Position numbers and translations under genes: made by a program
From: Psammoneis japonica
Lineage: Eukaryota
DNA: 64,000 bases
NCBI GenBank assembly: GCA_008632985.1
Contig: QPGO01000065.1
Location: 124,001-188,000, forward strand
Direction of reading: 5' to 3'
Shown here: positions 5,683-60,529 of the stretch, in pieces
How positions within the stretch are numbered: the stretch's first letter is position 1
How the letters are laid out: the number at the start of each line of letters is the position of its first letter
The notes under the pieces: generated by a model
Database searches by the model: none
Told to the model about the DNA's origin: nothing
Seen by the model: the letters and a program-made list of their open reading frames with translations, nothing else

Positions 5683-5712
5683 CAACAACAACAACAACAA
5701 CAACAACAACAA
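5683..5712 (+). repeat. (CAA)10 microsatellite
   Basis: Directly visible. Confidence 0.95.
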
Positions 5713-32985: not shown

Positions 32986-33277
32986 TCAGGCAATTGTGGA
33001 GATGTGGCGTCGTTGTGTGTGCCTCGAATTCGCAGCGGATCTCTGTGACGGACGACAGAGCGGGCTTTGTGGTGTCGGAAGACGCCATGGTTTTAGTGGG
33101 TGGAGCCATTTTTGGTCATGCACACGCAGAAATCTGGCATGTTTCTACGACCGTGAAAAATGCCAGGAAAGCGAGATAAAAAGTTGTCTGATCAGACGAT
33201 GAGGCTCGCTCAATCAGCTCACAAAACAAATGAATCAAAATAGAAAGCTTGGCGCAGAGGTCTGTGGCACAGCGCAA

Positions 33278-33287
33278 GGCCACAACC
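33278..33287 (-). promoter_or_regulatory. Primer-binding site of the Copia element
   Basis: GGTTGTGGCC directly follows the 5' LTR. It resembles the GGTTATG(G/A)GCC tRNA-iMet half-molecule PBS of copia-type elements, with TA read as TG. Confidence 0.65.
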
Positions 33288-33483
33288 TGACAGAATGCCG
33301 AAGGTCGACAGTGACAGAGGTGTGAAAGACTCCCCAAAGCACTGGGACTGTGACAACACAAGTGCCAGCAGAAGAGAAAGTGAGAGGCAGATCTCAGAGA
33401 GATCTGCTCGTCTGTCCAAATGGTCCAGCCATCATCCGCATCCAGTCTGCCTGTCATGCGAGACAGGTGCAGACAGGCTGACA
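33288..33483 (-). repeat. 5' LTR
   Basis: Direct repeat of 26257-26452, followed by the TSD. Confidence 0.95.
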
Positions 33484-38150: not shown

Positions 38151-40982
38151 ACTTAAAGAAAGTGAGCTGCAACTGCTGCAGACTCTGGGGTGTTGTCTCC
38201 GTCGGCGTCATTTAACTTGAATGCAAACAACAAAATAGAATGTTCATGGCACAATGCAAATGATTTTAATTTACAGGTTTTGCAGGGACAGAGGGTGGGC
38301 ACTCTCATGGGGAAAACGTGCCCCTGTTTCATGGTGAAACATTTTTTCTCATGGGGAGGGGGGGTCTGATCCCACAGCATGAAAATGTCAATCTGTCACA
38401 GTTGACATGTCATTGCCAGCTGCACAACTGATGAGGTTTGAAACCATAAAAAAATCATCTGTGAAAGGAACAAAAATCACAATGAAAAGATGTGTGATGA
38501 TCACTGCATTGCACGCTCTGATGTGGACACCGACGGGTTCCAGCCCCAGGCGGGACTCCGTGTGACATTGGGCCCGTAGAATTCTACGTGCGAGCTCCGC
38601 AGCACGAGAATTTAATCGACGGATGTGTTTGTCTTCAACATCAAATAAACGGCCAAGTTTGTGGTGCAATTGCGCCTCTTGCCACTCGATGTTTTTGCAA
38701 ATGTGCCTGCCCTGCGCGATTCTCAAGACATTGTAGAATCGCGCTGCAACAAAAAATGTCAAAAGCTGTTGGACGGATCGCTCAATGAGTGCACTGCACC
38801 ACAAAATGATGCTCTACAAAATTTTTTTCACAACAGTCTCGCACAATTCTGCACACGCGACATGCGGTGCAATCCAAAAAACCATCGATGCCACAGTTCA
38901 GCAGTGCGAGGTCCCGTCACCTCTAGAGAGCTGGGATGCGTCCACCGCAAATGATGGCCTGTCCGTCAGGCAGTGTGTCTCGAGGTGCGCCGTGGAGGTG
39001 TGACATGCAGTTCCTGCAACTGACTGACACCTCGTCACCACAAAGCATGGTCTTCTGACAACAACCCCAGATTGGCAAGGTGCAAGTCGTTCCCAAAAAA
39101 ATGATCCAAAATTGTTCAGGTCATGTCTCAGACCTCCTTTGCAGATTGGAAGGCAACAAGAAACACAAAATGATGCACACATGGTGGTGCATCGTCTTGA
39201 GGTGCATCTTGGGGTGCCGGCACTCCGTGATGTGCATCTCAGTTCCTGCAACTGACAGACACCTCATGCCTCGTCACCACAAATCATGGGCCCAATGTCA
39301 ACAACCCCAGATTGACAAGGTGCAGGTTGTCCCTGTCCTCCTCTGCAGATCCGAGGGCCACAAGAATCAAAAATGAGACACCACCTCTCTCTGGAGATGG
39401 GAAAAAGACAGAGACGGAGAAGGGCAGGCCCAAAGTGTGGACAGATGGCTGAAGTGAGGAGTTGTCAGCAAGGGCACCGGCGGGAACATTCGTCAATTGA
39501 GACACAACAAAAATGTCGTTGCATGGCTGCAACATCTGCGACCACACGAATCCACGACCACCCAAACCACCACGCAAGAACAAATCCATCACCCTTGCAT
39601 TCCCTGCAATGCCTCAATGACATTGTCCCTCTTGCGACATGTGCAATGCCGTGTCCAGAACATTCTACCCAATGCCACAATGATGCGCACATTGTTTTTT
39701 GTCTGCATCCCAATGGGTGCCGGTGCAACTGATCCAACACATTTTTTGGGTGCGTGCTCTTTTTCTCAGAATGTTCTTTGTCAAGTGCAAGGCATGCACC
39801 CAATCCAACCACGATGATGTGCCCTGAATGACACATCATTGTTTTGTCACTGAACAATGTCGCCCCATCATTGCTGTTCCCCATTTTGTTCTTGCAGGCA
39901 GAGGACATGACTCTTCTTTTTTGTCATGTGCAAAATCACAGCAATGGATTCAACCAATGATGCCGCAGCAGTGGATGTGGTGTGCCGCATGGAGGTTGTC
40001 TCAGCCATGTTGGGTTTGCTTGTTGTCACAATGGCCCTGGTCTTGCTGGCATTCTTGGTGGTGACAGCACATTCACCGGTGGCCGTCCTGGGCTGTGGTG
40101 GTGGCCGTGGTGGTGGGCATGGTTGTGGCCACAGTGGTGGCCCTCCTTTTGCATCTCATGGTGGAACATCTCGTGATGGCAGCGATGGTGATGGCGATCG
40201 GGTTGGCGGCAACAGCCTTGAAACTGCTCACCGTCCCGCGATCAGCCCTCCCGATGCATGTCATGGCGGACATTCGGATGAGAGCAGCAGGGGTGATGGT
40301 GGTCGCCCAGGCCGTGGTTTTGGCCATGGTGGTGGCCCTCCTTTTGCATCTCATGGAGATGCTCCATCCACACAACCACTTCTATTGAATCGTTCAATGA
40401 ATGTATGTAACCTTTATGTACTTCGGTCATAGAGGCATTCGCAACATTCGATTGGGATGGAGGCAACAACAGCGAAAATGCATGAGAAGCAGTGGATGAG
40501 GAGAAAAAGCATCTAACGGAAAAAATCGAGCGGCAATCGCTATACCAGATGCTTCCAATAGGGTTTAAAAAGACTCTTCCGATGCGATTACCACTCGATT
40601 ATCAACATCAACGCCGCCGTAAACGATTTGCTCACCATGGTCGAAGTCTTTTTTTCTCGTGCAAAAAGGACGAGGATTGTGGGGTGGCGGACGAACGTGC
40701 AAAAAATAGTTTTAGTCGAATTATTCAGCTATAACGAATTCTTTTTTGTACCAATGATGTACGTACCTTTCTACACTAATATAACGTATAAGAGTATTGA
40801 CATAATAATAAGAAATCCTTCTAGATCTTTTTGAATATTTTTATAGTGAATGTAGATATTATTGACGACGAGAAATGACACCGACGAGAGCGGCCGGGAG
40901 CAACTTGAAACTCAACACAATGACGAGAACATTGAAATAGAAACAGCTCCGCTCGCAATCTTCACGTTGTACAACCAACACA

Positions 40983-42065
40983 ATGAACTCGAACCAAGAG
41001 CCCTTCAACGAAGCAAACCCCGATCGCGCTGGTGCCGGTGGTGATGGTGAGCAGCCTCCGCCGCCTCGCGTGGAACCGGCATTGTCGGAAAGATCGGCGT
41101 CATCGGCCGAGGTTGTTGCTTTGGTAAACGCTATGGTGCACTTAGTCAACAACGCCATCCTTTTGGAGCATGGGTGAGTGATTTCTGTTGCTTGATTCTG
41201 TGCTCTTATTTCTTGTATATGTCTCTAACGGTTTTATCGTTTCTGCGCTGTGTTGTTCTTTCCGAATTATAGTTTTGCTCCTCAAGGTGTCACGGGCGTG
41301 CCACCCGGTGTGCCAGCGTTGTCGGAAAGATCTGCGTCATGGGCCGACGTTATTTCAATGACGAGTAACCTCGTGGATACCGTCAACAACATCGTCCTTT
41401 ATGCCCGCGAGTAAGTCATTTCTGTGACTTGTTCCTGTGCTTTTATTTTTTTTTGTCGATGTCTCTGACTGTTTTATGCTTTTCGCGCCGTGTTGTTCTT
41501 TCCACGATACAGCCTTGATCCAGCTGCGGCGGCTCAGCCTTTTGGCGCCGCCGCAAACCAGTCCAACAATTCTGGGCTGGCTTTTGGCGTGCCGAGTGCG
41601 TCGACTGGATCTGGTGGGACTGTGGCGGCCCCTCCTGCTGCGGCTTATCAGCCCCCGCCTGCTGCTTTTGCGGCTTATCAGCCCCCGCCTGCTCTTTTTG
41701 GTGGTGCTATGGCGGCCCCTCCTGCGGCCAACCAGCCCCCGGCTGCTTCTTCGGGCTTTGGGGTCGCAAATAATGCGCCACCGCCAGTTGACGAATTCGT
41801 CGTCAACGCTGCAAACGGCGGCTTGATATCAGATGGTGCCGACGCTGGTTGGACGGTTGTCATGCCTTTTGCTGACATGGACAACCAGTCGGGCTCAGGA
41901 GCTGCTTCGGATGGCGCGAATACTTTTGGTTCCCCCCCTGCCAACCCCACTGGTGGTTCTGGTAATTCTGCGCCCGGCGCTGGATTATCATTTGGTGCCG
42001 CCTCGGCTTCGGATGGTGCCGGTGAGCACAACACCGGTGGTTCTGATGCGGAGGAGATGAACTAG
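40983..42065 (+). CDS. Paralogue of the PPAPFGG low-complexity protein with a duplicated exon-intron unit
   Basis: ORFs 40983-41177 and 41490-42065; donors GTGAGT (~41173) and GTAAGT (~41411); the 'ALSERSAS' exon occurs twice. Confidence 0.45.
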
Positions 42066-45000
42066 TCTCCTACTACCAACAAGTACAAGTCGGAGTAAGT
42101 AGAGGATGGTGTTGGGGCAAGTATTTTTGCAAGGCGTTCTGCCACTGTGCCAGATTATACCGCCATGCAATAACGAGGAAGCAGAACCAAGACCAAGGTA
42201 TTGTTATTTTTTGCACTAGCTACAATATCGTAGAATAAGAAAAAAAATAGACCCAGAGGTTTTGTGAAATGATAATTATGCAGCTCACTTAACAGTAGGT
42301 TACGAATAAAGATTTTAGATTTCTGTGATCGTAGAGTTGTTCCTTCTTGAGTTGAAGGAGTAGGCCGTAACTTCCACCACCGCCAACTTTTCGTGGAGCC
42401 TTGTAACAGCTCTCGCCGGCCAATAGGCTACTCTCAGTATGGCCATCGACCAGAGCGGCTACCTTCCTGGACTTCCCCCAACTAACCAGAGCTTGAACTT
42501 GACCTATCCAATCTCTACCTCTAGAGAGGCCTTTCCAAAAGCATCAAACGCAGAAGAACTGCCCATCCGCAACACATCATTCAACTTTGCGGTTCAATGC
42601 CAATACACCGGAGGCACTAATTGAACACCTGGCAGCTGTTCTCCAACCGCCCTTGCTGCTCGGGAGTGGTCCAAGACTGACTCCATCAAACTTGTCGACC
42701 AGCCATTATGTTGTCGAGCGACATGCCGACAATCCCCCCCCACAACCTGTGCTGTTACCCTATCCGCCACACCATTTAAGTTAAAGGTTGCACTACTTAA
42801 GGGCAAATGCAGCATGTGGGTTCCACTCGCAAGCGACAACGTGAAATGCCTTGCTCTGTTGATCAGAGCCGGAAGAGCATAACGACCAATACGTGCGCAC
42901 ACATCCAGCACCAAATCACCGTCTTGCACCCCTTCATTTCAAAATCATTTTTTTCTCGGTGACATGCCCCAAATAATGAACGTAACTCGCGTCAAATCAA
43001 AGCTCTATCGAATTCGCTTTATCTCAATGAGGGTCGCATCAACCCGAGGGTCGTCCCCACCGTTGATTTTGGCACATAATGTAATCAATGACAAGAATTA
43101 GCCTTCTTGTATAGAAAAGGCACGTTGAAGTAGGACCAACGTTCTGTTGTCGCCCAGAATAGCACAAGTATTTTCGTACATGTGAAACAGATAATATTTC
43201 GTAATCCTTTGTTTCACATATTATCTTGCTTGCTTGAGTTGTGTTCCTAGAAGTGGCTTGTTTACATCGAGCATTGCCTCCATAAGCGCTTGCTGAGTTC
43301 TCGTCATTCTAGCCTCGCTGCTGTAAAATACCGCCGTGGAAAGCTTCTTGCGGTTTCCCAACCTTTCGCCCAGTGGCGCAACCGTACTATGATGCTGATT
43401 GAATGAAAACGATTGGAACAGCAATCAACCAAAGAGAACGTTGGGATAATTCGACTGAAACAGACCATGCATCGCGGTCCAGATCCCAGGTCGTGGTGTC
43501 AGTCGTGCGTGTTGTTCGTGTGTGTTTAATTAAGTCGTGTGTGTTGTCGTGTGTTGGTCGTGTGAATCGCGTTTTTATCTTGTCTGGGTTGACGATTTAC
43601 GACCCCTCGCGACTACCGGTTACTCAGCACGCTCCTCTCATTACGGTAACACCGTCCAAGCACCACAAATATGAATGAAACTGCCTCGTCGCGGCCTAGG
43701 CCCTACTCCTTCAACTCAAGAAGCAATGCCACCCGATGGCGACATAAGAGCGGCAATCCATCACGCGTCACAGCGCTTTCCGAAAGTCCAACCCTTAACA
43801 GACATCGCAGTATCAAGAGACAGATACCGGTTTGGTGAATGATACCGACTTTCAATCGCGATTTGTCGTACAGAACGAAGCGGTCGGCCCATCTGACCCA
43901 AACACTGAAGTGCAGCTACTCTAGTAGACGAGGAGACGACTAGAGCTTCATGGGCTGATACTGGTACTAACTCAGATTCCGCCGCTCTATCAAATAATGC
44001 AGTACGGCTAGACAAGCCCTACGTCGAGACTCGATGCGAAATCTCCAATCCAAATCAGTCACCACCACGACAACGGACGTTTCTCCATCTTCGATGTGGG
44101 TCCATTCCTCTTGGAGAACGCGTCAGCGTGCAACACTCTGTAACGACAGAGAACGCTCACCAAGAAGCAACCACTTTGCCACGGATCGATAATGATGGCG
44201 AACCCCTGAATATGGACGAGGACATGGTTAGAGTGGAACTCAGTGGCCAAGCCATCATCAACCATTGCCGAATCTCTATCAAGGCTCCATCGGAGTCATT
44301 ACAGCAAGGTTTTGACAGACCTGGAGCAAGCACCCCAGGACAGTCTGTATTTCAATACTTGCGTTAAGAAAGTGTTGGGGGGGGGGGGGGTGTGTGGCAG
44401 CTACTCGCAAAATCTGGAGCTTTGAAATCCAAATCTTTGCCGTCCACCCTGCGGATGGATGAACGGGATCCTCCTTTTGCTGGCATGTCCGAGATGCAGC
44501 TTGACGATTCTTCTGTTGCTGCAACCATGTCTTCGTGAGGGAGAAGTGCTCTTTCAGTTTTAGCAGCAATGCAACAAAGGATCGACTTGACTATGACAGA
44601 CTCGAGCTTTCTTTATCGCGAGCCAGAATGTACCTAGGGAGCATCTCGATCGATAAGCCATGCCTCGCCTTTGTCCTCATAGCTTGACAGATCGAGGAGG
44701 TGGATCAACAATATAGCTCCGCGATGGTTCCGATAATAAATGAGGATTCGGAGAATGAATCTTCACAAGTCGGCGGGAGCATGTCTCAAGGCTTTGCCCA
44801 GCATTCGGACAACAGCTTTGTCTATACGCAAGTAACACATTTTAAGCAGTGCTTGGATGAACATGATTTTGAGTTATCACAAAGCAACAAAGAGCCGTTA
44901 GCAAGAGCCGACGAATATCGATACCGAAACTAAAAATCTACCGCGGTGTACGAACGACACGGAAACGTGCAGCTACTCATCAATTACAAAGGCATGCTCC

Positions 45001-47149
45001 CAGTAGCGTAGACGAGGCTACAATGAATAACACATAGGGGCTAAACTCAATCGAGGTCGCAAAGATCAATGAGCATGTGAAAAGTCGAGAATTAACAGCA
45101 AACTTCATCCAGAGGACATAGCGAAGGAGTGTTTGGAGGCGGCAAAGTGAAAAGCTGAAGATACAACGGCAGATACGATCGACGACGCATCGTTAGGACC
45201 ATGCTTCTTTTCACCCGCGGATCGACAGTCCAGGACAAGTGTTTCTGCCAAGCGCCTCGCTAAAGCCAGCCAGTTGTTGAGGAACAAAAGGACAGATACT
45301 ACAAAATAAATCGCCTCAACCCAACCCTCCCAAGGAGAACAAGTCTGAGCACCCCGCACCACCATCAGTCCAACCCATAGCCACGGCACGAAAGCAGCAC
45401 TCCTTCGCTCCATTCTTTTATGGCAAACTGCAAGAAGTCTAGAATATAACTCTTTAGCAGAGAGAACGAAGCGTGCAGAACAAATTCAGGCTAGCAAGAG
45501 CATAAACGGCAAATCGCACCGTCCGAGGTCATGAAGGACGTAGGGAAGCTACTGTTGCAAAACGTGCAAGTACGACTACCATTATTATGAGGCGAAACGT
45601 ACTGCCCCACATCTGCAAGGAAGGAAAGCTTCAAGAGGCGACCACCTTGATTCCTCTGATGCCCATTCCGAGCATATGCATGAGCATTGCTTGGCCGCAG
45701 CCGCCCCACGAAGCGCCCAGCCCTACCAATGATTCTTGGCTTTGCGACATATTGTAAGAAGCTATAGTGAGTGTCTCGGTGGTGAGTATCGCACAGGCAG
45801 GGCAGCCACTAGCTGGAAATGGCGCTACTGAGACTTCTTTGGGCTCAAGCGGAACCTTGGAATGCGCGCCCCTGTCTCCACAAACTGGTTTTGCAACAGG
45901 TGAAAAGAAGTTAAAGATGCCTGTATCTGTATCGACTCTCCAGAATGCGCAACAACTGCCAGCGATAAAGAGTTTCATAGATAGGCCTTCGGACACGAGT
46001 ATCGCCAAGAAAAACGCGTCCGTTCCTCCATTTGTCGGGTTTTCGAGTTCTGGTAAGAATGCTGCAATACGTGTCTCGTCGGCCAGCCTTGAATAGGCAG
46101 GACAGCTATCAAGACAGAGCGCAGCGGATAGTTCTGTGGACACAGGCTGGTCTTGGAAGGTGCGCAATTTTCGCCACAAACTAGTTTTGCGGTAGCTGGA
46201 TCGAATCAAAGATACTCTAGTAGCTGTATCTGAAATACGTCTTGAAAAGGCATGACAGCCGCTAGCGAGAAAGAGTGACTCAGACAGGCCTTTGGACACC
46301 GATCGTGCGTCGCTTCCTCCGCTTGGTGGCTCCACTACCGCAGTTAAAAACTCTGCCATAAGTGTCTTGGCGGCACTTCGTGAAAAGGCAGGACGGATAC
46401 TTTCGAGTAAGAGTGCGATGGATCCTCCATAAGCCTCTAGCAGCGCTAAAGGGAGATTTTCTTCTTTCTCTCTCTCTGGCGTCGCCACAGCCGGTGCGAA
46501 GTCTACAACAATAGTCTCGGCAAAGAGCCTCGAAAAGGCAGGAAAGACGCTAGGGACGCGAACTGTTCCACGCATTTTGCGAAACCTCTCCCTCCCCAGC
46601 CGCCTTCGCAATAGCAGGGTACAACTCTGCGATCACTGTATTATCAGTTAGTCTTGAAGAGAACGGGGAGATGTTAGCGAGCGTGAGTGGAACAAAAGAT
46701 ATGCAATCAGACTTAGACTCAAGCCGACTCATAATGATTCGGTCGGAGAACCTCCGACTCGTCCAGAGGTAGACGTTGAATCTTCATCTTTCGCTTCGAG
46801 GTGCTTGATTACTCGTGAGAAAGAGGAAGCATCCTTCTTGTTCCAGAGTCTTGAGAGCGACGAGGCAGTATCTACTCAGTTTTTCACAGCTGCCAAATAC
46901 CGCGGAGTGTTGTGCACCAGGTGCTAGTACTTCACCGTCGGAGGTGTCTCCTTGCTTGGATGGAACAAAGATACTGATAAGAGACCGCGTTTCCGATATC
47001 TAGAAACATCTCTTCAACAACAACAACAACCACTCTTGTCATTGTTGCCAACAAGCACTCACTTTTCTTTTCAACACTATAGATGATCTTTGTGTTTCTG
47101 TTTACATTTCAATTGCAACACAAGCACAAAGAACATTCGTCACTAGGTG

Positions 47150-48500
47150 TTGGCTGATGAGGTTGTTTTACTGCCCGTTTCGCGAAAGACTTGCTCATGG
47201 CTGTGTCGTCGTAGTCACCACTTCTATGATGGGCTTTGCCATTCGTCTGAACTAAGGATGGCACATTGCAACTAGATGCGTCTCAGTCTTTCATAAATTC
47301 TAGCAGGTCTATTTTCTTTTAGCCTCTATGGTGTTTGTAACAATTTCTAAATAACAACACCCATATGATGCACGTTGTCGTGTCGCCCATGTTGTAACCA
47401 CTGGTTGTTGTCCAGTGCATCAAACGTTAGAGCAACCGCCCCACCCGCCGGCATCACATGACGTGAAGCCACCGTTTATAGCGTTGACGACGCCTTCGTC
47501 AACTTGCGGTGGCGCATCATTTGTGACCCCAAAGCTCAAAGGAACTGGCGGGGGCTGATTAGCCGCAGCATCAGGGGGCACCACAGTCCCACCAAAAGGA
47601 TCAGCCGGGGGCTGGTTGGCCACAGCAGGAGGGGCTGCCACAGCACCACAAAAAGGAGCAGGCAAGGGCTGATTGGCCACAGGATAGGAGGGGGCACCAC
47701 AGAGCCACGAAAAGGAGCAGGCAGGGGCTGATTAGCCACAGGAGGTGCCACCATGTTCCCACCAAGAAAAGGAGCAGGCAGGGGCTGATTGGCCACAGGA
47801 GGGGATTGGTCACAGGAAGGGCCGCTGCAGTCCCGCCAGATCCAGTCAAAGCATTCAGCACACCAAAGCTGGTCCAGAGTTGTTGGACTGGTTTGTGGTG
47901 GTGCCAAAAGGCTGAGTTGCCACACAGCTGGTTGATGGGCCATCGGCACAACAACACTTTGTGGTGGAGCAAGGCTGCATTGTGGAGAGGAGAACACAGC
48001 ACAAAACATGCAAAACAGTCAGAGACATTGACAGAAAATGTCAACAAAGCAACAAGAAGTCACAGAAATGACCAACTCATGACACAGAAGATGACATTGT
48101 TTTGATGGCATCCACCACCATCTTGCTTGTCATCTCAACAATGTTGTCCAATGATGCTGACAATGCTGGCAAGCTTGGTGGTGTGAGCACTTGAGGCATG
48201 CCAAGATGGCCTGGCGCTGACCTGTTGTTGCCTGAGGCTGCCCATTGCCAGCAGGGCTTGGAAAACACATCTGTGGCAAGTGGCAGTTGCTGAAGCAGTG
48301 GCCTCTGCCTCATTTTTCCTTCTCTCTGAGTTCACACTGCACTTGCATTGCCCCGTGCTTTTCCAGGGCAATCTGTCCAGCCTTTTTTCTTTCATTTGGA
48401 GTCTTCTTCTTTTCCCATGGCTTGCTCTGTGGCTTGGAATCCTTGGCCATTGTCTGTTGCACAACTGTGAGTCTTGGTTTTTCTGTTGTTTGTTGGTGCT
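47150..48500 (-). pseudogene. Hypermutated copy of the 3213-4486 gene and its 3' flank
   Basis: 'VVQQTMAKDSKPQSKPWEKKKT' vs 'VVRQTMAKDSKPQSKPRRKKKT'; PAPF repeats retained; frameshifted. Confidence 0.8.
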
Positions 48501-49409
48501 TGCTTTCCATCATTGCTTTTGAGTTTTTGGTGAATCATTGTTGTCATGATGTTGAACAATTTCTTTAAATTTCTGTTTGTCAATTGTTTCTTTCTGAATC
48601 TTTGCACACAGTGGAATTCCATGACCCTTGGCAGCAATGTTCAAATTTGAAACATGACTGAAGACAACAGATTTGTGCAGAGTGACATCACTTCCCAAAC
48701 CTCATTGGCCCAACTCAAAAGTTCCCAGTTTAGCATGAAAAACAGCATGTTGCACTTTGATGTGTCTCAACAATGGCAAAAATTGTTGGGTGAATGCAGC
48801 TTTTGTGGGGGGTCTTTTTCTGTTGTTGTCATGGAGAGGTTGGTGCATTGGTTTGGCTGGTTTTCTGTTTTGACATGCTGTGGTGCAACCGCAGTGTGCC
48901 TTGACTCATGACTCAATTATTTCACAGTGCACATGACATCTGAACAGTCCACAATGTTGCCAAGATGTGCATTTTCCTTGAGCAATGAAGCAGTCATTGA
49001 CGGTGCACTCAGTTGTTCCACAGTGTGTTGTTGTTTTTTAGAGTTGGTGTCCAGTGGAGTTGCAACGGCGTTGGATTGATCTGCCACTGCATCGGGGGAC
49101 GGGGGGTTGTGTTGACCACAGGCACTGTGTGCATGGGCAGCTCTCTGCACTGTTGAGTGGTGCATCCATTGTGTGGTGAGAATCTTTGAGGCAATTGGGG
49201 TGTTTAAGGCAACTGGCCTCCTGCCAAACAAGAGGACAAGCAAAGGCTCAAGCACTTTGGATGATGTCAAAAAGGATCAAATGCCAAAGAGTGGCAAACT
49301 TGGCAAGTGCTGCATTTGTGCAGTCATTTGCTGCCTCTCTTGTCATGCAGGTGCAGCGGTGGTTGCTGGTTGGCCAACAACTCAAGACCAAAAGCAGTGA
49401 ACAGAGAGT

Positions 49410-49411
<2 letters not shown>

Positions 49412-49440
<29 letters not shown>

Positions 49441-52400
49441 CTCAAAGCCCCCCCCCCAATGTGCCAAGCACTTCTTGCCAGATGCACATGGATGACTGGG
49501 GCTCACAAATGCAAGTGCAAATTGCCTGTCCAATCTGTGGAATGGCTCCCACCAGATGGCAATCTCAAAGCTTCAAGTGAAAACCTTTGCAACAACATGA
49601 TGCTGAGAGGGATCCTGAGTGTGCTGGTGTTGGGGGGGGCTCATGGCCAATGGGTGACATTGACAAGAAGACAAAAAACCCAGCCATCCATGATGTTCTT
49701 TTGACAAAACATCTGAAAGCTCAAAGTCCAGAAGAAGCCCATTTCCATGATGTTGGCAAGCCTGCTGGACTTCCAAGACTCAGCACTTGTCTCAAAGGAG
49801 ATGTGATGGTGCCATCAAGGAGCCACATGGTGGACTTGGCAAGCACAGCTTCCAGCTGGCTTTTCTGCCATGGAGATGTTGCTGGGATGTTTGAAAGTTT
49901 GACAAAAATCAAGCAGCCAGCATGGACAAGGTTGGACAGCAGATTCCAGCTGAAGCTGTCATGGTTTGTGCTGGTGGCTCAGAAGTCAAATGTGCATGTG
50001 GTCAAACCAACTGTGGTGTGTGCTGGTCTCAAAGCAGGCTTCAAATTCACACCTGCACCTTGCTTCACCAACAATGGCAGGTCACTCAAGTTCCAAGAGC
50101 ACACACTTGGTTGGATGCTTCAAGCTAGACCCAGACAAGTGCAACTGCTTTGCAAATGCACCAATTGACAATGACAATGACTGCAACCCAAGAATGCACC
50201 TCTGATCCAACTGGACCCCACCCCCTTGGAACAAAACCAAGACAGTCGAGTGCTGCTGCACAAACTTCAAGACAAGACTCACGAAGCTCTTCACCAAATG
50301 CAGAGGCAGAACCAACCCACTCCCTCATCAACGCCGCTCACTTGTTTGTCTCCAACAACAAGATGACTTCATTGTTGCCCAATGTGACAAGAACTTGGGC
50401 CCCGCCATCATCAAAAAAACTGAGTGCACCTGAGCAGCTTTGAAGCCAACGTGCATGAACGCCGAATCAGAAAACTCCTCGCTGATTGGATCAAAAAATG
50501 CAAAGCCAATCTGACCTCAATGGAATGCAAGCATCTCAAACACCACATTGAGACTGACGAAACCCCGTTTCCCATCTTCTGCCTCACTTTAAAGGTGCAC
50601 AAGCCACTCAAATCCCGACCCATCATCTCAACAACTGGCAGTCTGCTCTGCGGCTTGGGCATCTGGGTGGATGACAAATTGCAAAAAGTCACACGCAAGC
50701 AACCATCCCATTTTAAAAGTTCGCTGGATCTCAAGAATGAACTGGTTCAAATGACAGTGCTGCCAGACTGCCTCCTTTTTACGAGCAATGCCGAGTCCTG
50801 CTGCTTGAACATCCCAACCGAATGGAGCACTTCGAGTGATCGCGGCCTGTCTCTGACGCCATGAAAATGAATTCCAGGACGTCCCCACAGAGGCCCTTGT
50901 TGGAGCACTCCAAATCACAATGACACACAATGTCTTTGCCTTCGGAGATGCCACGTGGCTCCAATGAAATGGCGCCACTGTGGGCACACCACCCGCTCTG
51001 CCACATGCCACACTCTTCCATGCGTGTTGCACAAAGCCATGCTCCTGGAGGAGTTTAGCGCCAACCTTGTCTTTTACAAAAGATTTGTCGACAACATTGT
51101 TGGCATTTGGAAAATCACCGAATCAACCACCGACGCTGCTCGTTGGACTGCCTTTGCCTCCAGAATGAATGACCACGACATCAATTGGGTCATGAGTCCA
51201 AGAGCCAACCAAGCAAACTTTATGGACCTCACGATCACACTCCAAGGCTCTCACCTGCACACCACTCTCTATGAGAAAGAGATGAATTTACATTCATGTG
51301 TCCCACCACACTCAGCTCACCCGCCTGGAGTGCTCGCCGGCTCAATTGTGGGCATGCTCCTCTGCTTCAAGAACCTTTGCTCAGACCCAACCAGTGCAAA
51401 AGCAAAGATGAAACTTCTTTGCCATTGCTTGCTTGCTCGAGGCTGCAAGCCCAGCAAGCTCCAACCCATTTTTCAAAAGGCATGCAACTGCTCTTGGGGC
51501 AATGCGACAACAGCAGAAGTGCCCCCAACCAATCCCCCCGTCTTTCTGCACGTCCCATGTCATCCGAACGACCCACCGTCGAGCAAATTGCAAAAGATTT
51601 GGAAAGGAACGATGGCCTCTCCACCCCCCACTCTCAACCTCTTGCCAACATTCGAAATCACAATCGACAATGCATTGGCTTGGAACGCATGATCGTTTGT
51701 TGCAATCGGTCGTGCAACCTTGGCAACCTCCTTTCGTGCCACATCCTTTGCACCTCCGCTGGCCCCCCAGTTTCTTCCTGCCGGATTACAAACAGGGAGG
51801 CCACTGAGAGAGAGAGAGAGAGAGACAGGATGGTTTGTTGTTCGAGAGAGAGAGAGAGAGGAGAGAGAGAGAAGAGAGAGCTCAAAGCCCCCCAAACATG
51901 CCAGGCACTTCTTGCCAGATGCACATGGATGACTGGGGCTCACAAATGCAAGTGCAAATTGCCTGTCCAATCTGTGGAATGGCTCCCACCAGACAGCAAT
52001 CTCAAAGCTTCAAGTGAAAACCTTTGCAACAACATGGTGCTGAGAGGGATCCTGAGTGTGCTGGTGTTGGGGGGGGGGGGCTCATGGCCAATGGGTGACA
52101 TTGACAAGAAGACAAAAAACCCAGCCATCCATGATGTTCTTTTGACAAAACATCTGAAAGCTCAAAGTCCAGAAGAAGCCCATTTCCATGATGTTGGCAA
52201 GCCTGCGGACTTCCAAGACTCAGCACTTGTCTCAAAGGAGATGTGATGGTGCCACCAAGGAGCCACATGGTGGACTTGGCTCAATGGATGCAAGCACAGC
52301 TTTCAGCTGGCTTTTCTGCCATGGAGATGTTGCTGGGATGTTTGCAAGTTTGACAAAAATCAAGCAGCCAGCATGGACAAGGTTGGACAACAGATTCCAG

Positions 52401-52496
52401 TTGAAGCTGTCATGGTTTGTGCTGGTGGCTCAGAAGTCAAATGTGCATGTGGTCAAACCAACTGTGGTGTGTGCTGGTCTCAAAGCAGGCTTCAAA
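49412..52496 (+). mobile_element. Penelope-like retroelement with direct pseudo-LTR repeats (49412-50045 and ~51844-52496), each starting in a (GA)n tract
   Basis: ~640-bp direct repeats flank a degenerate PLE-type RT. Confidence 0.75.
50424..51800 (+). pseudogene. Penelope-type reverse transcriptase, frameshifted
   Basis: 'FCLTLKVHK..SRPIIS..GS', 'SHFKSS', 'LFTSNAESCCLNIP', 'YKRFVDNIVGIW', 'NFMDLTI', 'TTLYEK..NLHSCVPPHSAHP' and 'NLGNLLS' follow the PLE RT/thumb motif order. Confidence 0.85.
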
Positions 52497-55400
52497 GGAG
52501 GGGCTCACATGGCGGGTCTTCTCTGGGAGCTGTGCAGCTTCAAGATGATCTCAGACTGCTTCTTTTCATGGGTGCAGTGCCTCCAAAAAGGAGAACAGTG
52601 ACTTGATGTTTTGCTGCATCAGCCATCATCTTTGACCCTCTCCAGCACCACACTCATGCTTGACAGCTGCAGGCATGGTGAGAGCATCATTTTTGTGATC
52701 TGACGACACTCACTTGGCTTTTGCACAGAGTTTTTTGTGCTCAGCAAGGATGGTGCAGGGCAATCCACTCACATCTGGTGTCTTTGACCAGGCAACAATT
52801 CAGCAAAGAAATTTCCTGGCATCTTCACTCTTCCTTGTCATGCCGCTGATTCTTTGGCTGCTGAAGAGTTTGAAAGAGTTTAAGAAGCCTTTTTGTGCTG
52901 GTGAGAGTCAGGTCAGAAAGTCAAGCATTGTTTGTTTTACACCAGACTGTGACAAGAACACCCTGGTGGTTGTGACAAGTCACAGCCTGGAAGTGGCAAA
53001 CAAGCAGTGGGCTCACAACATCTTAACTTCACAGCTGCTGCCAGAAGCAGAGGTCTCAGTGGGTTTGTCTGCAAGAATGACAAATTTCAGAAGTGGGCAC
53101 AAGCAAAGCTCACTCCCAAGTCCAAAGGGTGAGCCAGCTGCAACTCAAGAGGAGGCAGCATGTCCAGCATGTGTGTGTGTGGCAAAAAGGCACTTGGATT
53201 TGCTTGCCACTGAGGTTGAAAATGCAGCTGTGCATCAGCACATTTTGACACAATGCCAGTCCAAGAGGACCCAAGGAAGGATTGCCCTGGTGTCCACTGT
53301 CCACCCCACTCATTGAGTGCTCATTTGGTGGATTTTGTGTCCCTCACCCTGCACATTTGGCATCTAAAAACAGCGCCCATGTTGTTGCTTGGCTCTCCAC
53401 ACATTTGGTTGGGAGCAACTCCTGACATGATGCAAGGAGGTCAAATCTGTGACTTCAGAGCACAAGAAGAGCACTGCAAATTAGAGTGACTTTCGCACAA
53501 TTTTCAAAGCTCTGCACAAGATGAGAAAGCCAGCACCACATGTGAAAAAGCACCCAGGTGGAAGCTTGGCTGGCTGTTTGCACATCCATCCATGCTGTGA
53601 ACTGTGAGCAGTGCAGACCTGTCATGTCAAGAGCCCCATGATGTCACCCCCCACGCTCGCCACACCAAAACACCAAAAAAGCACAAAAAAGCATGATGGG
53701 TGCAGACACACAGGTTTTCCCAATGCAGCACACACTGGGTCACAAAAAAGCATGGCCCAGCCATCTCTCAGCACAGCAAGATCCACAATGAGCTTTTGCC
53801 AACCTTCTTGCCACATTTTCCAAGACTCCTTGGTGAGCCATTGGCTGGCCCAGGCAAGCCAAAGTCATCAGAAATCTCAGAAAAATGAGAGTGACGGCAA
53901 CAAAGGTGCAATGCTCTGACACTCACAACTGCAAAGTTGTGCAGACCAAAAAAAATCACATGAAAAAGGAGAAAAAGGGCAAGCATCCCAAGCTGGGGCA
54001 GTGGCCTGTTCCAGCTCCAGGTGCTCCGCTTGGGTTCGATTCCCATCATTTGGCAATTTGTGCATTTGGCGCATTGACTTTTTCAAAATCCGTTTTTTTG
54101 CCAAATCGAAGGGCAAGTGTGCACTTTACACGCATTTTCGGTTTTCGGGTGTACACTCACCTTTCGATTTTCGAAATGACAAAAATTGAAGGAGTTGAGT
54201 GTGCTAAACTGCGCAGAAAATTGGCCTCTCTCATGATGAAAAGCAGATCACCTGGAGCTGGAACAGGCCCAGTGCAGCCTTTTGCCCCGTGGCTTGCAAC
54301 CTTGTGGCACAACCTGAAACAGAGCAGTCAGAAGGGAGGCAAAGGTGACATGGTGTGGGACAGCAGCCAAAATCTCAGACAATGGCATGGTCCATGCTCT
54401 GAAGTTTGCAGCCTTGCAAATGCTCAAATGAGCGCACGCTGCAAAAGCAACTTGTCTCTGTCTTTGTGGGTCATGAGCCCCATCCAGTCGGACATGAGTT
54501 CTTGGCACCAGCCCGCGTTTGTGGTGGGGTGCTTTTGGCTGCAGCTGGCCTGTTGCTGCTGCTCCAGCTCCACCTGGCTGCACACCCCCTGCATTGTGGA
54601 GCAGCCACATGCTGGAAAAGACAGAAGGTGCAGGCACTGCCAAGTTTCTGCCCACAAAAATTGCACATTTGCTGTTTTGTGCACAACCTCTCTGGGCAGG
54701 GATTCCCCCACATGCCCCTCACAAGGTTTGTGCAGAAATGCAGAGAAATGTGCCACACCAGAGCTGTTTCACAAAGCATCTGAGCAGGGCGTTGGCTGCC
54801 ACACAAGCCCTGTGGCAGCACCTCACACTTGGGGCATGTGTGGTCCATGCATGCTGGGGCAGCTGTGCAAGCCAAAACGGAGACCTGCCTCTTTGCTGCA
54901 GCATGCTGCAGATGTTGGGAGCTGGAGCTGGCTGGCTTTTGTCAATGTGCTTTGTTTGTGCTGCAGCCTCGTCTGTGGGCCAGCTTTGCTTGGTTCAGAG
55001 CCACAGTCAGCTGTTTTGACAACTTCTTTGGAGAGTTTGTTGTTGCTTGCATGTTTTCAAGCAGGAACAAGAACAAGTGGCAACCCTGCCATGGCAGGAG
55101 CAAAGGTGCTGCCACTGTTGCTGCTTCCTTTTATGTTGTCTTTCTCCTGAAACTTTTCTGCTCTGCACCACCAGCACCGCAACAACAGTGTGAGCACAGG
55201 TGGACAGATCAACATCAAACATCTGTGCAGTGCACCCAGCCAGCCACTTTTTTGTTAATCCTTTGTGGGGCCTTTGCAGAAAATGCCACAAAGCTCCTGG
55301 GAACCAGCACCCACCCAGGCTCCAGCAGCAGTCCTTCATGCTTGGCACTGCATGGCATCCTGGCACAACAAGGCTCGGCAGGAGGACTTTCAGATTTTAG

Positions 55401-56297
55401 ACCAGAGCTCTTTTCCAGAGCTGCAAGGTGCAGCAACATCAAAGAGCTGGCTGTGTGTGGCAGGAGTCTCCTGGCTCTCTGGCACAACATGGTGGGCAAA
55501 TTCTCACACCCTTGTTGTCCTGTTGGGGGGGCAGATGTGGCCCAGAAATGTGCACAGATCAAGCATCCTTGCCACACCACAATGTTGGCAAAACAGGAAA
55601 ACTTTGTGACTGAAGATGAGCGGAGTGAATGGCACCTGAAGAGCAGCTGCTTGGCTCAGCCTGGTGGGCCATCCCCATGGAGTGCTCAGATGGAAATCAG
55701 AATTTGCTCAAGACACCAGCATCATGCCACAATGATTCTGTGAGTTGAGAGTTGAGCACCATCTGGCTGAAAAAGAGTGAACACTTTTTTCGGACGTCCC
55801 GCCCCCACAGACCTCACAACCCATGTGCTGTCGGGGTTGCGGTTGTTACGTCCGCGTTGAGTCTGCATGACGGTGAGCCGTGAAGGGACGGGTCAGACAC
55901 AGGTGTGATCTTCACTACCGCACCTGTCTACCGGCATTCTGTCTCTGATCTTTCCGCAATGCCGAAGGGGGGTGGTTCTTGGAGCAATCAGGACGTTCGC
56001 CGTGGCGTGTGGTTGAGGTTACCAAGAGATTGCAGCGCGGCATGTTGGGTTTAGGCTGTCTAGAGCAGAAGTCGACTTAACCTACAAACAAGCGTGTTTC
56101 ATTTACAAAAAACATTGAAAATAGTTCAGCAGTTATTGCCAATACAGCAATTCAAGAGAATTTTTAATTCGAAAAAACAATGTATTGGTAGTCTACGACT
56201 TAACCGCATGGCTGGCTCTCTGAATAGGGAGAGTCGCTGGCGGCTAGTGCAACTGATAATCTCTTCGTGTCTTAGTTTTCTAGGTTCATCTTCTCCC

Positions 56298-57737
56298 CTA
56301 CTCTTGCTTGATGGACGCCACGGCCTCTCTACTACTAGCGCCAAGTACTATGGGCAACGCATGTATGTCCCAGTTCTCGTCCCATTGCGTTCGTCCTTGT
56401 AAATTACTCGAATATTGCTTCAACTCTCCGTACCCGTGTGGAGGCAATCGACTCGATTTGTCTCCCAAAGGTTCGAGTAGTTCAAACAGCTGACTGGTTA
56501 GCTGTGAGGCGGTTTCAAAGACACGGCCATTCACCTTGTCTTGTACAAGCTCCGACAAGCACGCAAAGTCCTTGGCGCATACGGGTACATGGCAACCAAA
56601 CAAATCCAAAATCTTCATGGGAAGGTCCAGTCCGCTAGTGGATGTATGCAACGAAACACCCAAGTCGGCGCATGCCAATAGCAGCGGGTAGTCCTTGTGT
56701 TCCAACCAAAGCGTCATGATGCGTACATGATGAAGAGTCAGCTTTTCCATTTCTTCTTGATAGTACTCCTTGAGCGGTCCCTTGCCAGTCACCACCACTA
56801 AAATTCGAAAAGGCCGGCTGTGCTGGTGAATATGGGAATCCAACTCTTGCAGTGCGTCCAGCAACAATCCAAAGTCCTCATCGGGTGTCCAAGATGTAGA
56901 ACTCACCACTAGGGCAGGTCTAGCAAGTTGTGGCTGTACAAGTTCCTTACTTGATTGTTCCGTAAAGAGACTTTCCGAATTAGAAGTAATCCAGCCATCA
57001 CCACCACTGGGAAGTTGGTTCTCCAGTTGAATTCGTCTGAAAAACTCGTGTTGCTCTTTTAGCGATATTGGTTGAAACATACTCGGTGGACAGTCGTACA
57101 AGACATTGATCCGATTCGTGGCTACTCCAAACTCCTTGACAACAAACTCCTTCATGGCGGACGTGACACACAAGTGCCCGTCCGCCAGGGGAGCCATTTG
57201 AGCTTCATAGAGCCTCGTCAGTTTGCTCAGAACGCTTCCAGAAGGAAACATGGAGTACCCCAAGTTGTGCCAGTCAATAACAAGACTGGTTTTGGAATGA
57301 CCGAGACGTATCAATCTGCAGTAGAGAAATGACACGAGCAAGAGCGGGATAGCCGGAGGGTTCTGTACCAAGACGCATCGTTGCTCCACGTGGTTTCGCC
57401 TACAGTAAGTTGTAGCATTCCAAAACGCCCATAATAAATTGAATACCAGACTCAGTATCCTCCATATGTAATACAATGGCAATATTCTCTTTAATCTGAA
57501 TGGTGGTGTGGACACTTGCATGTGAATCACATTCAGTCGGTCCGAGTATCGCGAAAAAGCAGGAATCAACTTCTCTCCGGCATACCCAATCATGGATACA
57601 TATTGACCGTTCTTTAGGAGAGACAATGCATGATACTGCATACGAGGGGATCGACCCAGGTCTCCCAAGACAATCACAATAAAATGATGACGCTGTGGCA
57701 GAGGTGGATCTTGATGACGACCGGAAGATGACGCCAT
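56298..57737 (-). CDS. ALG1: Chitobiosyldiphosphodolichol beta-1,4-mannosyltransferase
   Basis: Intact 479-aa ORF with 'VLGDLGRSPRMQYHALSL', 'VQNPP', 'IDWHNLGY', 'SSTSWTPDEDF' and 'DLGVSLHTSTSGLDLPMK'. Confidence 0.96.
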   Translation of the reverse strand: MASSSGRHQDPPLPQRHHFIVIVLGDLGRSPRMQYHALSLLKNGQYVSMIGYAGEKLIPAFSRYSDRLNVIHMQVSTPPFRLKRILPLYYIWRILSLVFNLLWAFWNATTYCRRNHVEQRCVLVQNPPAIPLLLVSFLYCRLIRLGHSKTSLVIDWHNLGYSMFPSGSVLSKLTRLYEAQMAPLADGHLCVTSAMKEFVVKEFGVATNRINVLYDCPPSMFQPISLKEQHEFFRRIQLENQLPSGGDGWITSNSESLFTEQSSKELVQPQLARPALVVSSTSWTPDEDFGLLLDALQELDSHIHQHSRPFRILVVVTGKGPLKEYYQEEMEKLTLHHVRIMTLWLEHKDYPLLLACADLGVSLHTSTSGLDLPMKILDLFGCHVPVCAKDFACLSELVQDKVNGRVFETASQLTSQLFELLEPLGDKSSRLPPHGYGELKQYSSNLQGRTQWDENWDIHALPIVLGASSREAVASIKQE

Positions 57738-58078
57738 GGTAGGTGCTGGTGTTTTGGGTGATGAGAAAGGGAAGAGCTGGAATGGAGCGCGAGGCGCGCG
57801 AGCGAGCGAGCGAGTTCTGGTCCGTCCGTAATCCGTGAATGACTATGTATATAAATCATTAATGAATGGATATTGGGGATTGTTTGCTTTTGAAAATGTT
57901 ATGTGATTCGTCTTACAGTATCAGTAAAGTAAATTAAAATACTGTATTAATTACTTAATTTAATTTATAAGACGGGATTAACGGTCGGCTTCTGCTTTTC
58001 GTCCGTTGCTTCAAGAAAAACAAAAAAGGCAAACGAACATACCGTGCCTCTCTTCATTCTCGCTCTCTCTCCGTGACC
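57738..58078. promoter_or_regulatory. Putative bidirectional promoter between divergent ALG1 and HID1-like genes
   Basis: 341-bp head-to-head intergenic region with an AT-rich core (~57845-57980). Confidence 0.5.
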
Positions 58079-60529
58079 ATGGGAGCCTCGGCCTCTCGAG
58101 AAAAGTTCCGCGAGAGCGTGACAGCTCTGATTGAAGTGGATGTGAGTCCCGATGATGCCGAATTCTGGGATGAGCTCTGGAAGATTCCGAGTTCACCAGA
58201 GGAAGTCTTTGAATTGATCTCTCCCGAGGCGGCTCGATCCTTGCGTGACGAGCGGTTTGACAACTTGGCAACGCTCTTTACGCAAGCTACGGCGCAGCTA
58301 TGTCAGATTGTGGAGACGCCTTATAACATTTACTTTGATCAGGCTCTAAACTGTGTCCGCGTCTTGACCCGAATTCTGCCGTTTCTGTTGGAAAAAGGTA
58401 TGTCGATTCTGAACACAAACATACCGAACATACCGCTCCCAATGCGCTTCTTTGTATGCCAATTAGACTACTGAACTCACCCTCTATCGCTCTCTTTAGG
58501 TGATTTGGGCGATGCGGATGAGAACGTAGAGCAGTTGTGTTGGGGAACGGGTGGTGCAGACGAACGAATCGGACTCGTGGTGGGAGAAGATGGTACAACA
58601 ATGTCGACACTACCGGGCGCCACGCCAAAGTACGACGAAGAGCAGGAACCGCTCGCTTTGCTGGTAGTACATGCCGCCATGCACATGCTCTTTTTGCCGC
58701 AGTTTACGTGTGACTTTTATGAAGAACAAGAAGGATCTTCGCCATCCAAAATGAGATCCAAAAAGAGAACGCAAGACTCAAAGGAGAATAGAGATATGAG
58801 GGCAGAAGCAGGATTGACATCCACCAAGCACGTGGAAGATGGAGTCGTATTGACCCCGAAACCCACTACTATTGTCTGGGCGGCGGGTGCAGGGGTTGCA
58901 GCGGATGAGTTGGGCCTTGATGGATCGACGCGCAAGTACGATAAGAACCGGATTGAAGTACTCAGGCTCCTGCTTGTCTCCTTGTGCGATCCACTCTTCT
59001 CGCCGGCCGATGAGTACAATCCTTTGGCTTCCAGGTGGATGGCGGTCGCAACTGCAGCGGACTCACCCAATGCGGTCTGTTTATTCTACTCACTCTTGAA
59101 TACCATCCTCTCGTTTGATCCTCGGGGACTCGTTCCTTATTCATCGGACAACCACATCAAGCTCGTGGAGCTCTCGGCACAAGTTCTCTGCGTCTTGCTG
59201 GACTGCGGATTGCCCGGCAGTCCTGAGGTCGTTAAGAACCCTAGCGACGAGCCTATTGTGGAATTTCAAGTCGCCGGCAAGAATGGGTTCAATATATTCC
59301 GGACTCTACTCGCAAGGATTGATACTACGGAAGAACTCACATTCCTGTATAAGGGCTTTGTCCGCCTTCTGACTTCCGTCTACAGCAACAAGTCTTCCTA
59401 CTTGCCAAACTCGGGAAAGCTAGAGTGCTATCAGGAACTCCTAGTCTTACTTTGGAAGTGTCTGGAGGAGAATCCCATGTTCATGAATCACGTATTGACA
59501 AAGTGTGATATCAACGAACTCATTGTCCCGGTATGCTTCCTCATGTACCAAAGCCGACGAGACCCGGCTCAGATTGGGTTGGTACACATTTGTACCTTTT
59601 GCCTACTCAAGCTCAGTGGCGAACGATCCTTTGGTGTAGCGCTCAACAAGCCATACACGGAAAAACTACCATGCGACTTGCCCCTCTTTAGCGGCAGTCA
59701 TACGGACCTTGTCGTCATCACGCTTCACAAGCTTGTCGTTAATGGTGCATACAAGCTGGTCCCGCTCTATTCCTGCTTCTTGACCATTATCTGCAACATT
59801 TCTCCGTATTGGCGGAAAATGTCCTTGGTGGCAGCCGTCAAGCTTGTCAATCTCTTTGAGCTTTTCTCGTCTCCCAAGTTCCTCTACTCCGGAGAACAGT
59901 CTCATCGTCATTTGGCTCTCTTGCTAGAAGTCATCAACAACATTGTTCAATACCAGTACAATGGTAACCAACATTTGGTGTACGCTATTATTCGGAGAAA
60001 AGACTCGTTCGGTCGCTTGGCCTCTCTTACACTTCAAAAAGCTCAGGCACAGTGTCACCGAGTGTATGGCGACCACACGTCGGTCACTTACGATGCAGAC
60101 GCCGAGGCCAAGGCCGAGGCGCGACCCCGTACTGGTCTACCCGGCGATGACGACGCCGATGGAAATCCGAATGCGCCCTTTGTCCCGACGGAAGAATGGC
60201 TTGCCGAGCTCAAGGCCAACTTGCCACTTGAAACCGTGACACGTCTCTTGCAACACTTGGTACCCGTTGTCGATGAAATGTGTGCCAACAAGAGTGGCGT
60301 TGTCGACGAGGCTGAAATATTGGAAGTCCTCAAGGATGTCACCATGGTTGGCCTGTTGCCCGTGCCGCATGCGATTGTGATTCGCAAGTACCAACCCAAT
60401 CAGTTCACAGCTCTATGGTTTACGGCATTCATGTGGGGTGTCATTTTTCTTCGAAACCAAGCGCTCCCCATGTTTGACGGAAAGGCGATTGAGTTATTCC
60501 AAGTCGCCGTTGAAGAAGAGGAGGAGTAG
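58079..60529 (+). CDS. HID1: HID1/Ecm30 (dymeclin-related) Golgi protein; exons 58079-58397 and 58500-60529
   Basis: MGASAS myristoylation-type start; 'FWDELW', 'ALNCVRVLTRILPFLLE', 'LLKLSGERSFGVALNKP', 'IVQYQYNGNQHLVYAI', 'VGLLPVPHAIVIRKYQPN'. The GTATGT...TTTAG intron joins the exons in frame. Confidence 0.9.

Follow-up and report, generated by a model that had tools for sequence, protein, structure and literature searches.

The subject of this analysis is a stretch of 64,000 nucleotides from the diatom Psammoneis japonica (assembly GCA_008632985.1, contig QPGO01000065.1, positions 124,001–188,000 of the forward strand), referred to below as the window, whose coordinates are used throughout, and in particular a duplicated gene copy, designated c4, that straddles the border of a domain depleted of TA and CG dinucleotides. 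The window is eukaryotic, with ~50% G+C, and its open reading frames (ORFs) are long and intronless or intron-poor. A dinucleotide profile in 500-base steps, together with a two-state segmentation of the 64 kb, delineates three TA-depleted domains that jointly cover ~25 of the 64 kb:

3–2794, domain A, TA-depleted (rho TA 0.13, rho CG 0.71)
26064–40377, domain B, TA-depleted (rho TA 0.10, rho CG 0.61)
47485–55913, domain C, TA-depleted (rho TA 0.06, rho CG 0.23)

In the three normal stretches beside and between these domains, rho TA is 0.64–0.68 and rho CG 0.96–1.00, and within all three domains TG+CA is in excess (rho 1.30–1.75). The borders are sharp: ~480 bases without a single TA precede position 40383, after which six TA occur within 50 bases. 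On the right side of domain C, the border for CG (55791) precedes that for TA (55916) by 125 bases.

The gene in question is present in the window four times, as c1 (3213–4481, plus strand), c2 (~11395–12115, minus strand), c3 (41342–41896, plus strand) and c4 (47100–48450, minus strand), and the region of c1 and c4 forms the outer ends of a ~9-kb inverted segmental duplication. The duplication was mapped with purine/pyrimidine (RY)-coded seeds, which are blind to transitions. The features relevant to the comparison of the copies are the following:

2916–12050, plus strand, left arm of the inverted segmental duplication
41340–48795, minus strand, right arm of the duplication (identity to the left arm 0.85–0.99, CG/TA kept up to ~47500)
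2916–4750, plus strand, sister copy c1, intact (ATG at 3213, exon 1 to 3935, GT..AG intron, exon 2 to a stop near 4481)
11395–12115, minus strand, paralogue c2, unmutated (region homologous to exon 2)
41342–41896, plus strand, paralogue c3, unmutated
47100–47579, minus strand, unmutated proximal part of c4 (end of exon 2 and 3' flank; 21 TA and 25 CG in 480 bases)
47513–47579, edge interval of c4, with mixed kept and lost sites
47580–48795, minus strand, hypermutated distal part of c4 (upstream region, exon 1, intron and most of exon 2; 4 TA and 7 CG in 1216 bases)

The predicted product of c1 has a basic N-terminus followed by P/G-rich and FG-like repeats. The reading frame of c4 meets a stop after 46 codons and carries large deletions, so that c4 is, by its sequence, a pseudogene. 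No extension of the inverted duplication beyond 2916/48795 was found with the RY-coded seeds, and a transition-tolerant alignment of the sequence beyond these points was no better than shuffles, its scoring being too permissive and its power low.

The preliminary description of this DNA had called the duplicated unit a non-TE gene, i.e., not derived from a transposable element (TE). This is plausible, given that a Pfam search found no TE protein domain in the arms and that the arms are low-copy by k-mer depth. Less can be said for the gene itself, the mutated copy being a pseudogene and no homologues having come to light: Pfam detected only an FG-nucleoporin likeness, below threshold (E = 0.002), there are no homologues of c1 exon 1 or of the neighbouring 359-aa ORF (6261–7340) among proteins of 0.55–1.75 times their length, and a protein atlas search with the same two queries gave no usable match.

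In a transition-tolerant alignment, 2916–4750 (plus strand) is colinear with the reverse complement of 47100–48795. The four-way alignment shows that c1, c2 and c3 agree on CG or TA at the positions where c4 has TG or CA, which settles the direction of change. It had been stated earlier that the partner copy at 3000–4500 is untouched and polarises the changes; indeed, c1 is intact and keeps its CG and TA, and not one but three unmutated copies agree. The example pair given there is likewise exact (3189–3208 is aligned to 48474–48455). Beyond 47951, 42 of the 51 CG of the left arm are TG or CA in the right arm and one is kept, and 21 of the 25 TA are TG or CA with none kept; at or below 47520, by comparison, 17 of 22 CG and 13 of 25 TA are kept. 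The homologous stretches contain 47 TA and 108 CG in the left copy (2916–4308) and 4 TA and 7 CG in the right copy (47580–48795); seven successive 100-base windows from 47800 on are devoid of TA, and in the last two 500-base bins of the arm 0 of 37 CG and 0 of 18 TA are kept. The losses in c4 are almost all single transitions to TG or CA, and ~45% of the CG/TA bases carry a transition, which corresponds to one change per dinucleotide (double TG/CA differences amount to 11/97 in the distal and 2/64 in the proximal part, an excess that is not significant, p = 0.08). The change is specific to these dinucleotides: at bases outside CG/TA, the distal part shows 9% transitions and 7% transversions, and the proximal part 10% of each. 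In the remainder of the duplication, every 500-base bin from 41250 to 47250 keeps CG and TA symmetrically in both arms, i.e., ~7.5 kb of the right arm is spared. Thus, with the 85–99% identical arms and three of the four gene copies untouched, the process is not triggered by homology.

The loss of TA and CG in the right arm past ~47500, as originally noticed, is real, and the pairwise alignment of the arms with loss plotted against position, which had been proposed as a check, places a step ~60 bases further on. The maximum likelihood change point lies at 47564/47579, with 77 of 95 CG/TA steps kept before it and 1 of 81 after it (Fisher p = 6e-31). Kept and lost sites are intermixed at 47513–47579; the last kept TA is at 47560 and the first lost one at 47584, and the corresponding positions for CG are 47564 and 47579, such that the TA edge and the CG edge coincide within ~25–100 bases. 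There is no shoulder of partial loss deeper into the mutated part, and hence the switch from kept to lost sites is a step, no wider than ~70 bases, and not a gradient. The edge is located inside the duplicated unit, away from the unit end at 48795; there is no recognisable insertion junction, and in the alignment a 22-base identical stretch adjoins the edge.

An independent edge, that of domain A near 2800, cuts through the second copy of a pair of direct repeats:

1782–2222 and 2491–2918, plus strand, direct repeat pair of ~440 bases at the edge of domain A

The 22 differences that separate these repeat copies are transitions without exception, and in the segment 2806–2918 copy 2 keeps nine TA and copy 1 keeps three. 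This edge is 117 bases short of the duplication-arm junction and the edge in c4 is 1220 bases past the corresponding junction, so neither edge is tied to the junction.

Domain B contains the only recognisable TE protein of the three domains:

26251–33461, minus strand, hypermutated Copia-type retrotransposon with long terminal repeats (LTRs) at 26251–26432 and 33282–33461

The two LTRs of one element are identical at insertion. In this element, the LTR pair shows 11 TG-versus-CA discordances along with 49 concordant sites; there are three TA that only one of the LTRs still has, and the CG have mostly persisted. The discordances indicate that the loss of TA occurred after integration and independently in each LTR. 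The gag-integrase ORF has 914 relatives at E <= 0.001; at 9 of 9 conserved tyrosine columns, the copy differs from 13 relatives (5 Cys, 3 His, 1 Phe), and its overall composition is shifted accordingly, with 0.2% Tyr against 3.3% in the relatives and 5.2% Cys against 1.6%. The Tyr to Cys or His replacements are the coding imprint of TAY to TGY or CAY changes. As for c4, it retains the intron and the upstream region and hence is not a retro-copy, and its private transversions do not differ in frequency across the edge (14/357 distal and 8/197 proximal, p = 1.0; the corresponding counts of c4-only transitions are 50/357 and 12/197). Taken together, the LTR discordances, the tyrosine replacements, the intron of c4 and the equal transversions speak for c4 having been mutated as a contiguous copy at its present place. 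Mutation occurs in place, on genomic DNA.

The surviving dinucleotides point to the sequence preference of the process. Among the TA that survive in the domains, ATAT, ATAC/GTAT and GTAC account for 5 of 136, compared with 491 of 1640 in normal DNA (p = 5e-14), and ATAT with ATAC/GTAT alone for 1 of 136 compared with 363 of 1640; conversely, TTAA, CTAA/TTAG and CTAG make up 58 of 136 survivors and 286 of 1640 normal TA (p = 1e-10). RTAY thus appears to be the most susceptible context and YTAR the least, which implies a four-base context for the putative TpA mutator. The surviving CG show no flanking-base bias (context ratios 0.82–1.41). Which neighbour would be decisive, a 3' pyrimidine or a purine at –2, did not emerge from the informative polarised sites (15 versus 9, p = 0.31), and a comparison of tetranucleotide gains and losses was confounded. 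The outcomes TG and CA are balanced, 41:41, and fall into 43 runs with 42.0 expected (P = 0.63, 82 events); a strand-coordinated outcome had been considered on account of the run structure of the first 23 events, which is gone across all 82. Neighbouring CG/TA sites have concordant outcomes in 18 cases and discordant outcomes in 20. The strand symmetry and the unclustered outcomes fit many independent events and not one processive burst.

The relative rates can be roughly estimated from these small counts. In c4, ~98% of the CG are lost and ~7% of the sites outside CG/TA have changed on its own lineage, so the loss of CpG would be roughly 50 times background, a rate not unusual for methylated CpG. 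In the Copia LTRs, ~90% of the TA are lost where ~25% of the CG are, which would make the loss of TpA roughly ten times faster than that of CpG, i.e., at least about 500 times background.

We favour the interpretation, to which we assign a probability of about 0.6, that TpA and CpG are mutated in place in kilobase-scale domains that are targeted by chromosomal position and not by homology or sequence identity. The proposition that the process follows position, not sequence, made already on first inspection, gains support from the sparing of the sister copies and of most of the right arm and from the second edge that cuts a repeat. Under this interpretation, domain C would extend 1.2 kb past its repeat-rich core, reaching into the outer end of the duplication, where it would have stripped TA and CG from the 5' three quarters of c4, halting within ~70 bases inside exon 2. 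The reach of mutation might be defined by a stably bounded silenced or methylated domain, within which the loss of CpG would be ordinary deamination of 5-methylcytosine and the loss of TpA would be due to enzymatic, TpA-specific editing confined to the same domain; since both losses stop at one place, both would be confined by the same boundary. The editing could be an adenine deamination, as proposed for another protist (see below), or alternatively a thymine modification that mispairs. The escape of c1 could be explained either by purifying selection or by domain A ending short of it.

The content of domain C bears on this interpretation. Its salient features are:

49424–50045 and 51864–52496, plus strand, direct repeats of ~620 bases, TA/CG-free, ~98% alike
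50247–51843, 54027–54212 and from 55791 on, sub-blocks of domain C that retain CG
54003–54269, short high-copy repeat of ~265 bases (summed k-mer depth ~11800, many different flanks)

Each of the 620-base repeats is preceded by a (GA)n run. The 10 CG and 3 TA still present in the high-copy repeat suggest that a very high-copy element inserted here recently. The preliminary description had placed a Penelope-containing block next to the edge; this could not be confirmed, as none of the 66 ORFs of at least 60 aa in 48800–56000 matches Pfam at E <= 0.01. The test is weak, given that the reverse transcriptase of the clear Copia element was missed as well (its reverse transcriptase and integrase core are no longer Pfam-detectable, 26500–28172). 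The same holds for the absence of Pfam matches among the 109 ORFs of domain A and the 29 ORFs of the rest of domain B, where there are only two chance-level matches. The TE origin of the domains is thus apparent for domain B, through Copia; domains A and C are without a recognisable TE protein, and domain C takes in 1.2 kb of a duplicated gene copy in which no TE domain is recognisable. The long ORFs of domain C (323, 437 and 319 aa) conform to the chance expectation for DNA in which TGA is the sole stop codon. Hypermutated DNA of this kind, free of TAA and TAG, is an annotation trap: it yields spurious ORFs of up to 437 aa, and genuine TE proteins within it escape Pfam.

Several observations weigh against targeting by position. 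The 620-base repeats have 7 TG/CA discordances among ~156 sites, which indicates that they were mutated mostly before they were duplicated and, consequently, that not all of the DNA in domain C was mutated at its present place. The 1.6 kb between them are TA-poor and have CG at normal density; within domain C, the loss of CG tracks blocks of sequence and not position. That mutation spreads from a chromatin domain, as was suggested on first inspection from the neighbouring block, is conjectural, and simple spreading of this kind would be expected to give an edge less sharp than the one seen here, whose width is at most 70 bases. At the change point itself, c4 has a 3-base indel that coincides with the border of the FG-repeat units U4 and U5, and it is at such borders within a tandem array that unequal exchanges are likely to occur or conversion tracts to end. 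Nor do c4 and c1 pair up in the distal zone: two-versus-two transversion splits number 4 for c1c4|c2c3 and 5 for c1c2|c4c3, compared with 11 and 2 in the proximal zone. Finally, the sequence is present in the public runs of one sample only (3 rows, one study), with no RNA data set listed among them.

Some of these points would fit an explanation that we consider doubtful but the most serious among the alternatives, namely, that the edge is a recombination junction, the distal 1.2 kb having been mutated elsewhere, or the proximal part restored, through an exchange or conversion that ended in the FG-repeat array. A junction of this kind would be step-like and could well carry the indel at the unit border, and the 620-base repeats show that mutated DNA can later be duplicated. 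Moreover, conversion between the copies seems to take place. The identity of the arms is 0.98–0.99 at 43750–44750 (versus 8150–9290) and 84–93% at the ends, and the 98–99% identical middle suggests that gene conversion between the arms may be ongoing. Likewise, c1 (3880–4466) and c2 (11395–12028), two copies of opposite orientation that lie within one arm at a distance of ~8 kb, hardly differ from the last part of exon 1 through the intron into the first part of exon 2, although their 3' ends are unrelated, a pattern suggestive of local conversion between these paralogues; we assume that this homogenisation of c1 and c2 accounts for the failure of c4 to group with c1 in the distal zone. However, the equal frequency of c4-only transversions on the two sides is not what a junction would give, the proximal identity to c1 (0.84–0.88) is not raised as it would be after a recent restoring conversion, no donor was found in the window, and the independent edge near 2800 would demand a second coincidence. 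The idea, raised at the outset as one that would overturn targeting by position, of a separately inserted, previously mutated copy with its own junction is disfavoured in that no insertion junction is recognisable at the edge, the indel at the change point being what speaks for it.

A joint removal of TpA and CpG by one enzyme or complex with two targets, such as an ADAT2/3-like deaminase that edits both A and C in DNA, is suggested by the coincidence of the TA and CG edges in c4, by the depletion of CG in all three domains relative to the normal stretches, and by the mention, in a preprint on Bigelowiella natans (Mettrop et al., bioRxiv 10.64898/2026.01.13.699255), of ADAT2 enzymes that deaminate A and C in DNA. 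We nevertheless regard a common activity as unlikely: in domains A and B, TA is nearly gone where 60–70% of the CG is kept; the flanking bases have a strong effect on surviving TA and none on surviving CG; the right borders of domain C for TA and CG differ by 125 bases; neighbouring CG and TA sites show no coordination of outcomes; and in the accessible part of the same preprint the 231 mutations of the hypermutation region are nearly all at TpA, with no mention of CpG. An artefact of sequencing or assembly, by which modified bases of heterochromatin are miscalled, would be in line with a pattern limited to palindromic steps, the typical targets of DNA modification, and with the restriction of the sequence to one sample; it is highly improbable in view of the LTR discordances, the tyrosine replacements and the indels between copies, all of which are evolutionary signatures, and of contigs assembled from k-mers of a public run (X1), which at a depth of ~65 match 47267–48447, across the c4 edge, without a difference and at depths of ~60–65 reproduce other parts of domain C with 0–1 differences, although this matching run is possibly from the source sample of the assembly. 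Hardly any weight, the least of all, attaches to a homology-triggered process of the type of repeat-induced point mutation (RIP) or to RNA editing followed by retro-insertion. In its favour, the mutated stretch belongs to a duplicated unit, and some diatoms have DNMT4, a relative of the fungal RID (PMC9998398). ADAR, for its part, has a preference for a 5' U. Against this, TA is destroyed here and RIP creates it, one of four copies is affected and the arm that carries it is free of the change over 7.5 kb, neither the intron nor the upstream region of c4 is missing, and susceptibility peaks at RTAY and not at TAG.

The closest known case is the TpA to TpG/CpA hypermutation of integrated DNA of nucleocytoplasmic large DNA viruses (NCLDV) and virophages in B. 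natans, which proceeds at ~1000 times background in mutation-accumulation lines, of which only some show it, which affects a region reaching ~21 kb beyond the annotated virus, and for which the authors propose adenine deamination (Mettrop et al., bioRxiv 10.64898/2026.01.13.699255). The two systems share the change of TpA to TpG or CpA on either strand, here with no excess at other sites; the confinement to discrete regions that are foreign or, as appears to be the case here, repetitive; the mutation of the genomic DNA itself, in place; the signature of low TpA with high CpA+TpG, found there in clusters rich in reverse transcriptases and transposases; and the extension of the hypermutable region past the annotated insert. 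The TpA rate estimated here is also of the order of the 1000-fold excess measured there. Unlike in B. natans, a chlorarachniophyte, the host is a diatom, i.e., a stramenopile; the depletion is near saturation (rho TA 0.06–0.13, compared with 0.45 in the B. natans NCLDV region); CpG is lost in the same domain and up to the same edge (as with the 42 of 51 CG in c4), with CpG receiving no mention in the accessible part of the preprint; the edge is resolved to ~70 bases with paralogues as controls; and there is a flanking-base effect, with RTAY the most and YTAR the least affected. Neither the sharpness of the edge nor the flanking bases are mentioned in that part of the preprint. No report of TpA hypermutation in diatoms was found in the full-text literature, subscription journals and preprint supplements being outside its view. 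Diatoms are known to methylate TEs via DNMT5a (PMC9998398). Three things are new here: a diatom as host, the edge as such, and a loss of CG that ends at it.

The other processes that come to mind resemble the one described here in part. Like fungal RIP, it is a dinucleotide-specific transition hypermutation of genomic repeats that inactivates TEs. Fungal RIP changes CpA to TpA, so that TpA rises, and is homology-dependent, mutating both copies of repeats above ~80% identity. Here, conversely, TA falls to rho 0.06–0.13 and TG+CA rises to rho 1.3–1.75, and 9-kb arms of 0.85–0.99 identity are untouched together with c1, c2 and c3. The decay of methylated CpG in silenced TEs offers a close parallel, with CpG to TpG/CpA changes, no flanking-base preference and confinement to repeat-rich blocks, but it accounts for the CG half only. 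ADAR or APOBEC editing of retroelements similarly produces clustered transitions in mobile elements. ADAR prefers a 3' G and the APOBEC context is TC/CC, from which the TA context seen here differs; in addition, the LTR discordance is post-integration, unlike editing that precedes integration, the host flank with its intron is affected, and the outcomes are strand-symmetric (41:41).

The unmutated stretches of the window carry ordinary host genes, namely, a MATH-BTB protein (21033–22442), a group-1 glycosyltransferase (56298–57842) and a leucine-rich repeat protein with an LRRNT_2-type N-terminal domain (61550–63778). A further ORF (58475–60529, 684 aa) encodes a HID1/dymeclin protein whose best relatives, at 74–75% identity, are from Nitzschia, Pseudo-nitzschia and other raphid pennate diatoms. 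In the public reads, the matches of a second run (X2) are restricted to the unmutated flanks. In run X1, over 47267–56280, the depth is ~60–65 across domain C, and in the right flank there are two allelic contigs, of ~51 and ~65 (~117 summed); the single-depth contigs begin and stop ~300–360 bases outside domain C on both sides. Domain C may be present in one haplotype only, or there may be two alleles that have diverged by more than 10% via independent hypermutation.

For TpA-specific hypermutation of foreign DNA, there is one earlier report, from 2026 and in a chlorarachniophyte. The present locus is a natural experiment, a sequence that is present four times with one copy half inside and half outside a mutated domain, whereby targeting by position becomes separable from targeting by sequence or homology. 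The edge, known to ~70 bases, provides a site at which a step in methylation, histone marks or small RNAs can be matched, and the loss of CpG ends where that of TpA ends. Genes beside TE blocks can be lost as collateral damage, and the removal of TAA and TAG stops and of tyrosine codons gives rise to long ORFs that are spurious and makes TE protein domains go unnoticed in annotation. Tentatively, as a broader proposal that we hold with less than even confidence, diatoms might possess a DNA-editing genome defence that is bounded by chromatin domains, erases TpA together with CpG from silenced DNA and overruns neighbouring host genes, which it can destroy. The four-base palindromic RTAY context would point to an enzyme that recognises double-stranded DNA and not to a single-strand deaminase, and, together with the Bigelowiella system, such a defence might be an old trait of the SAR (stramenopiles, alveolates and Rhizaria) lineage.

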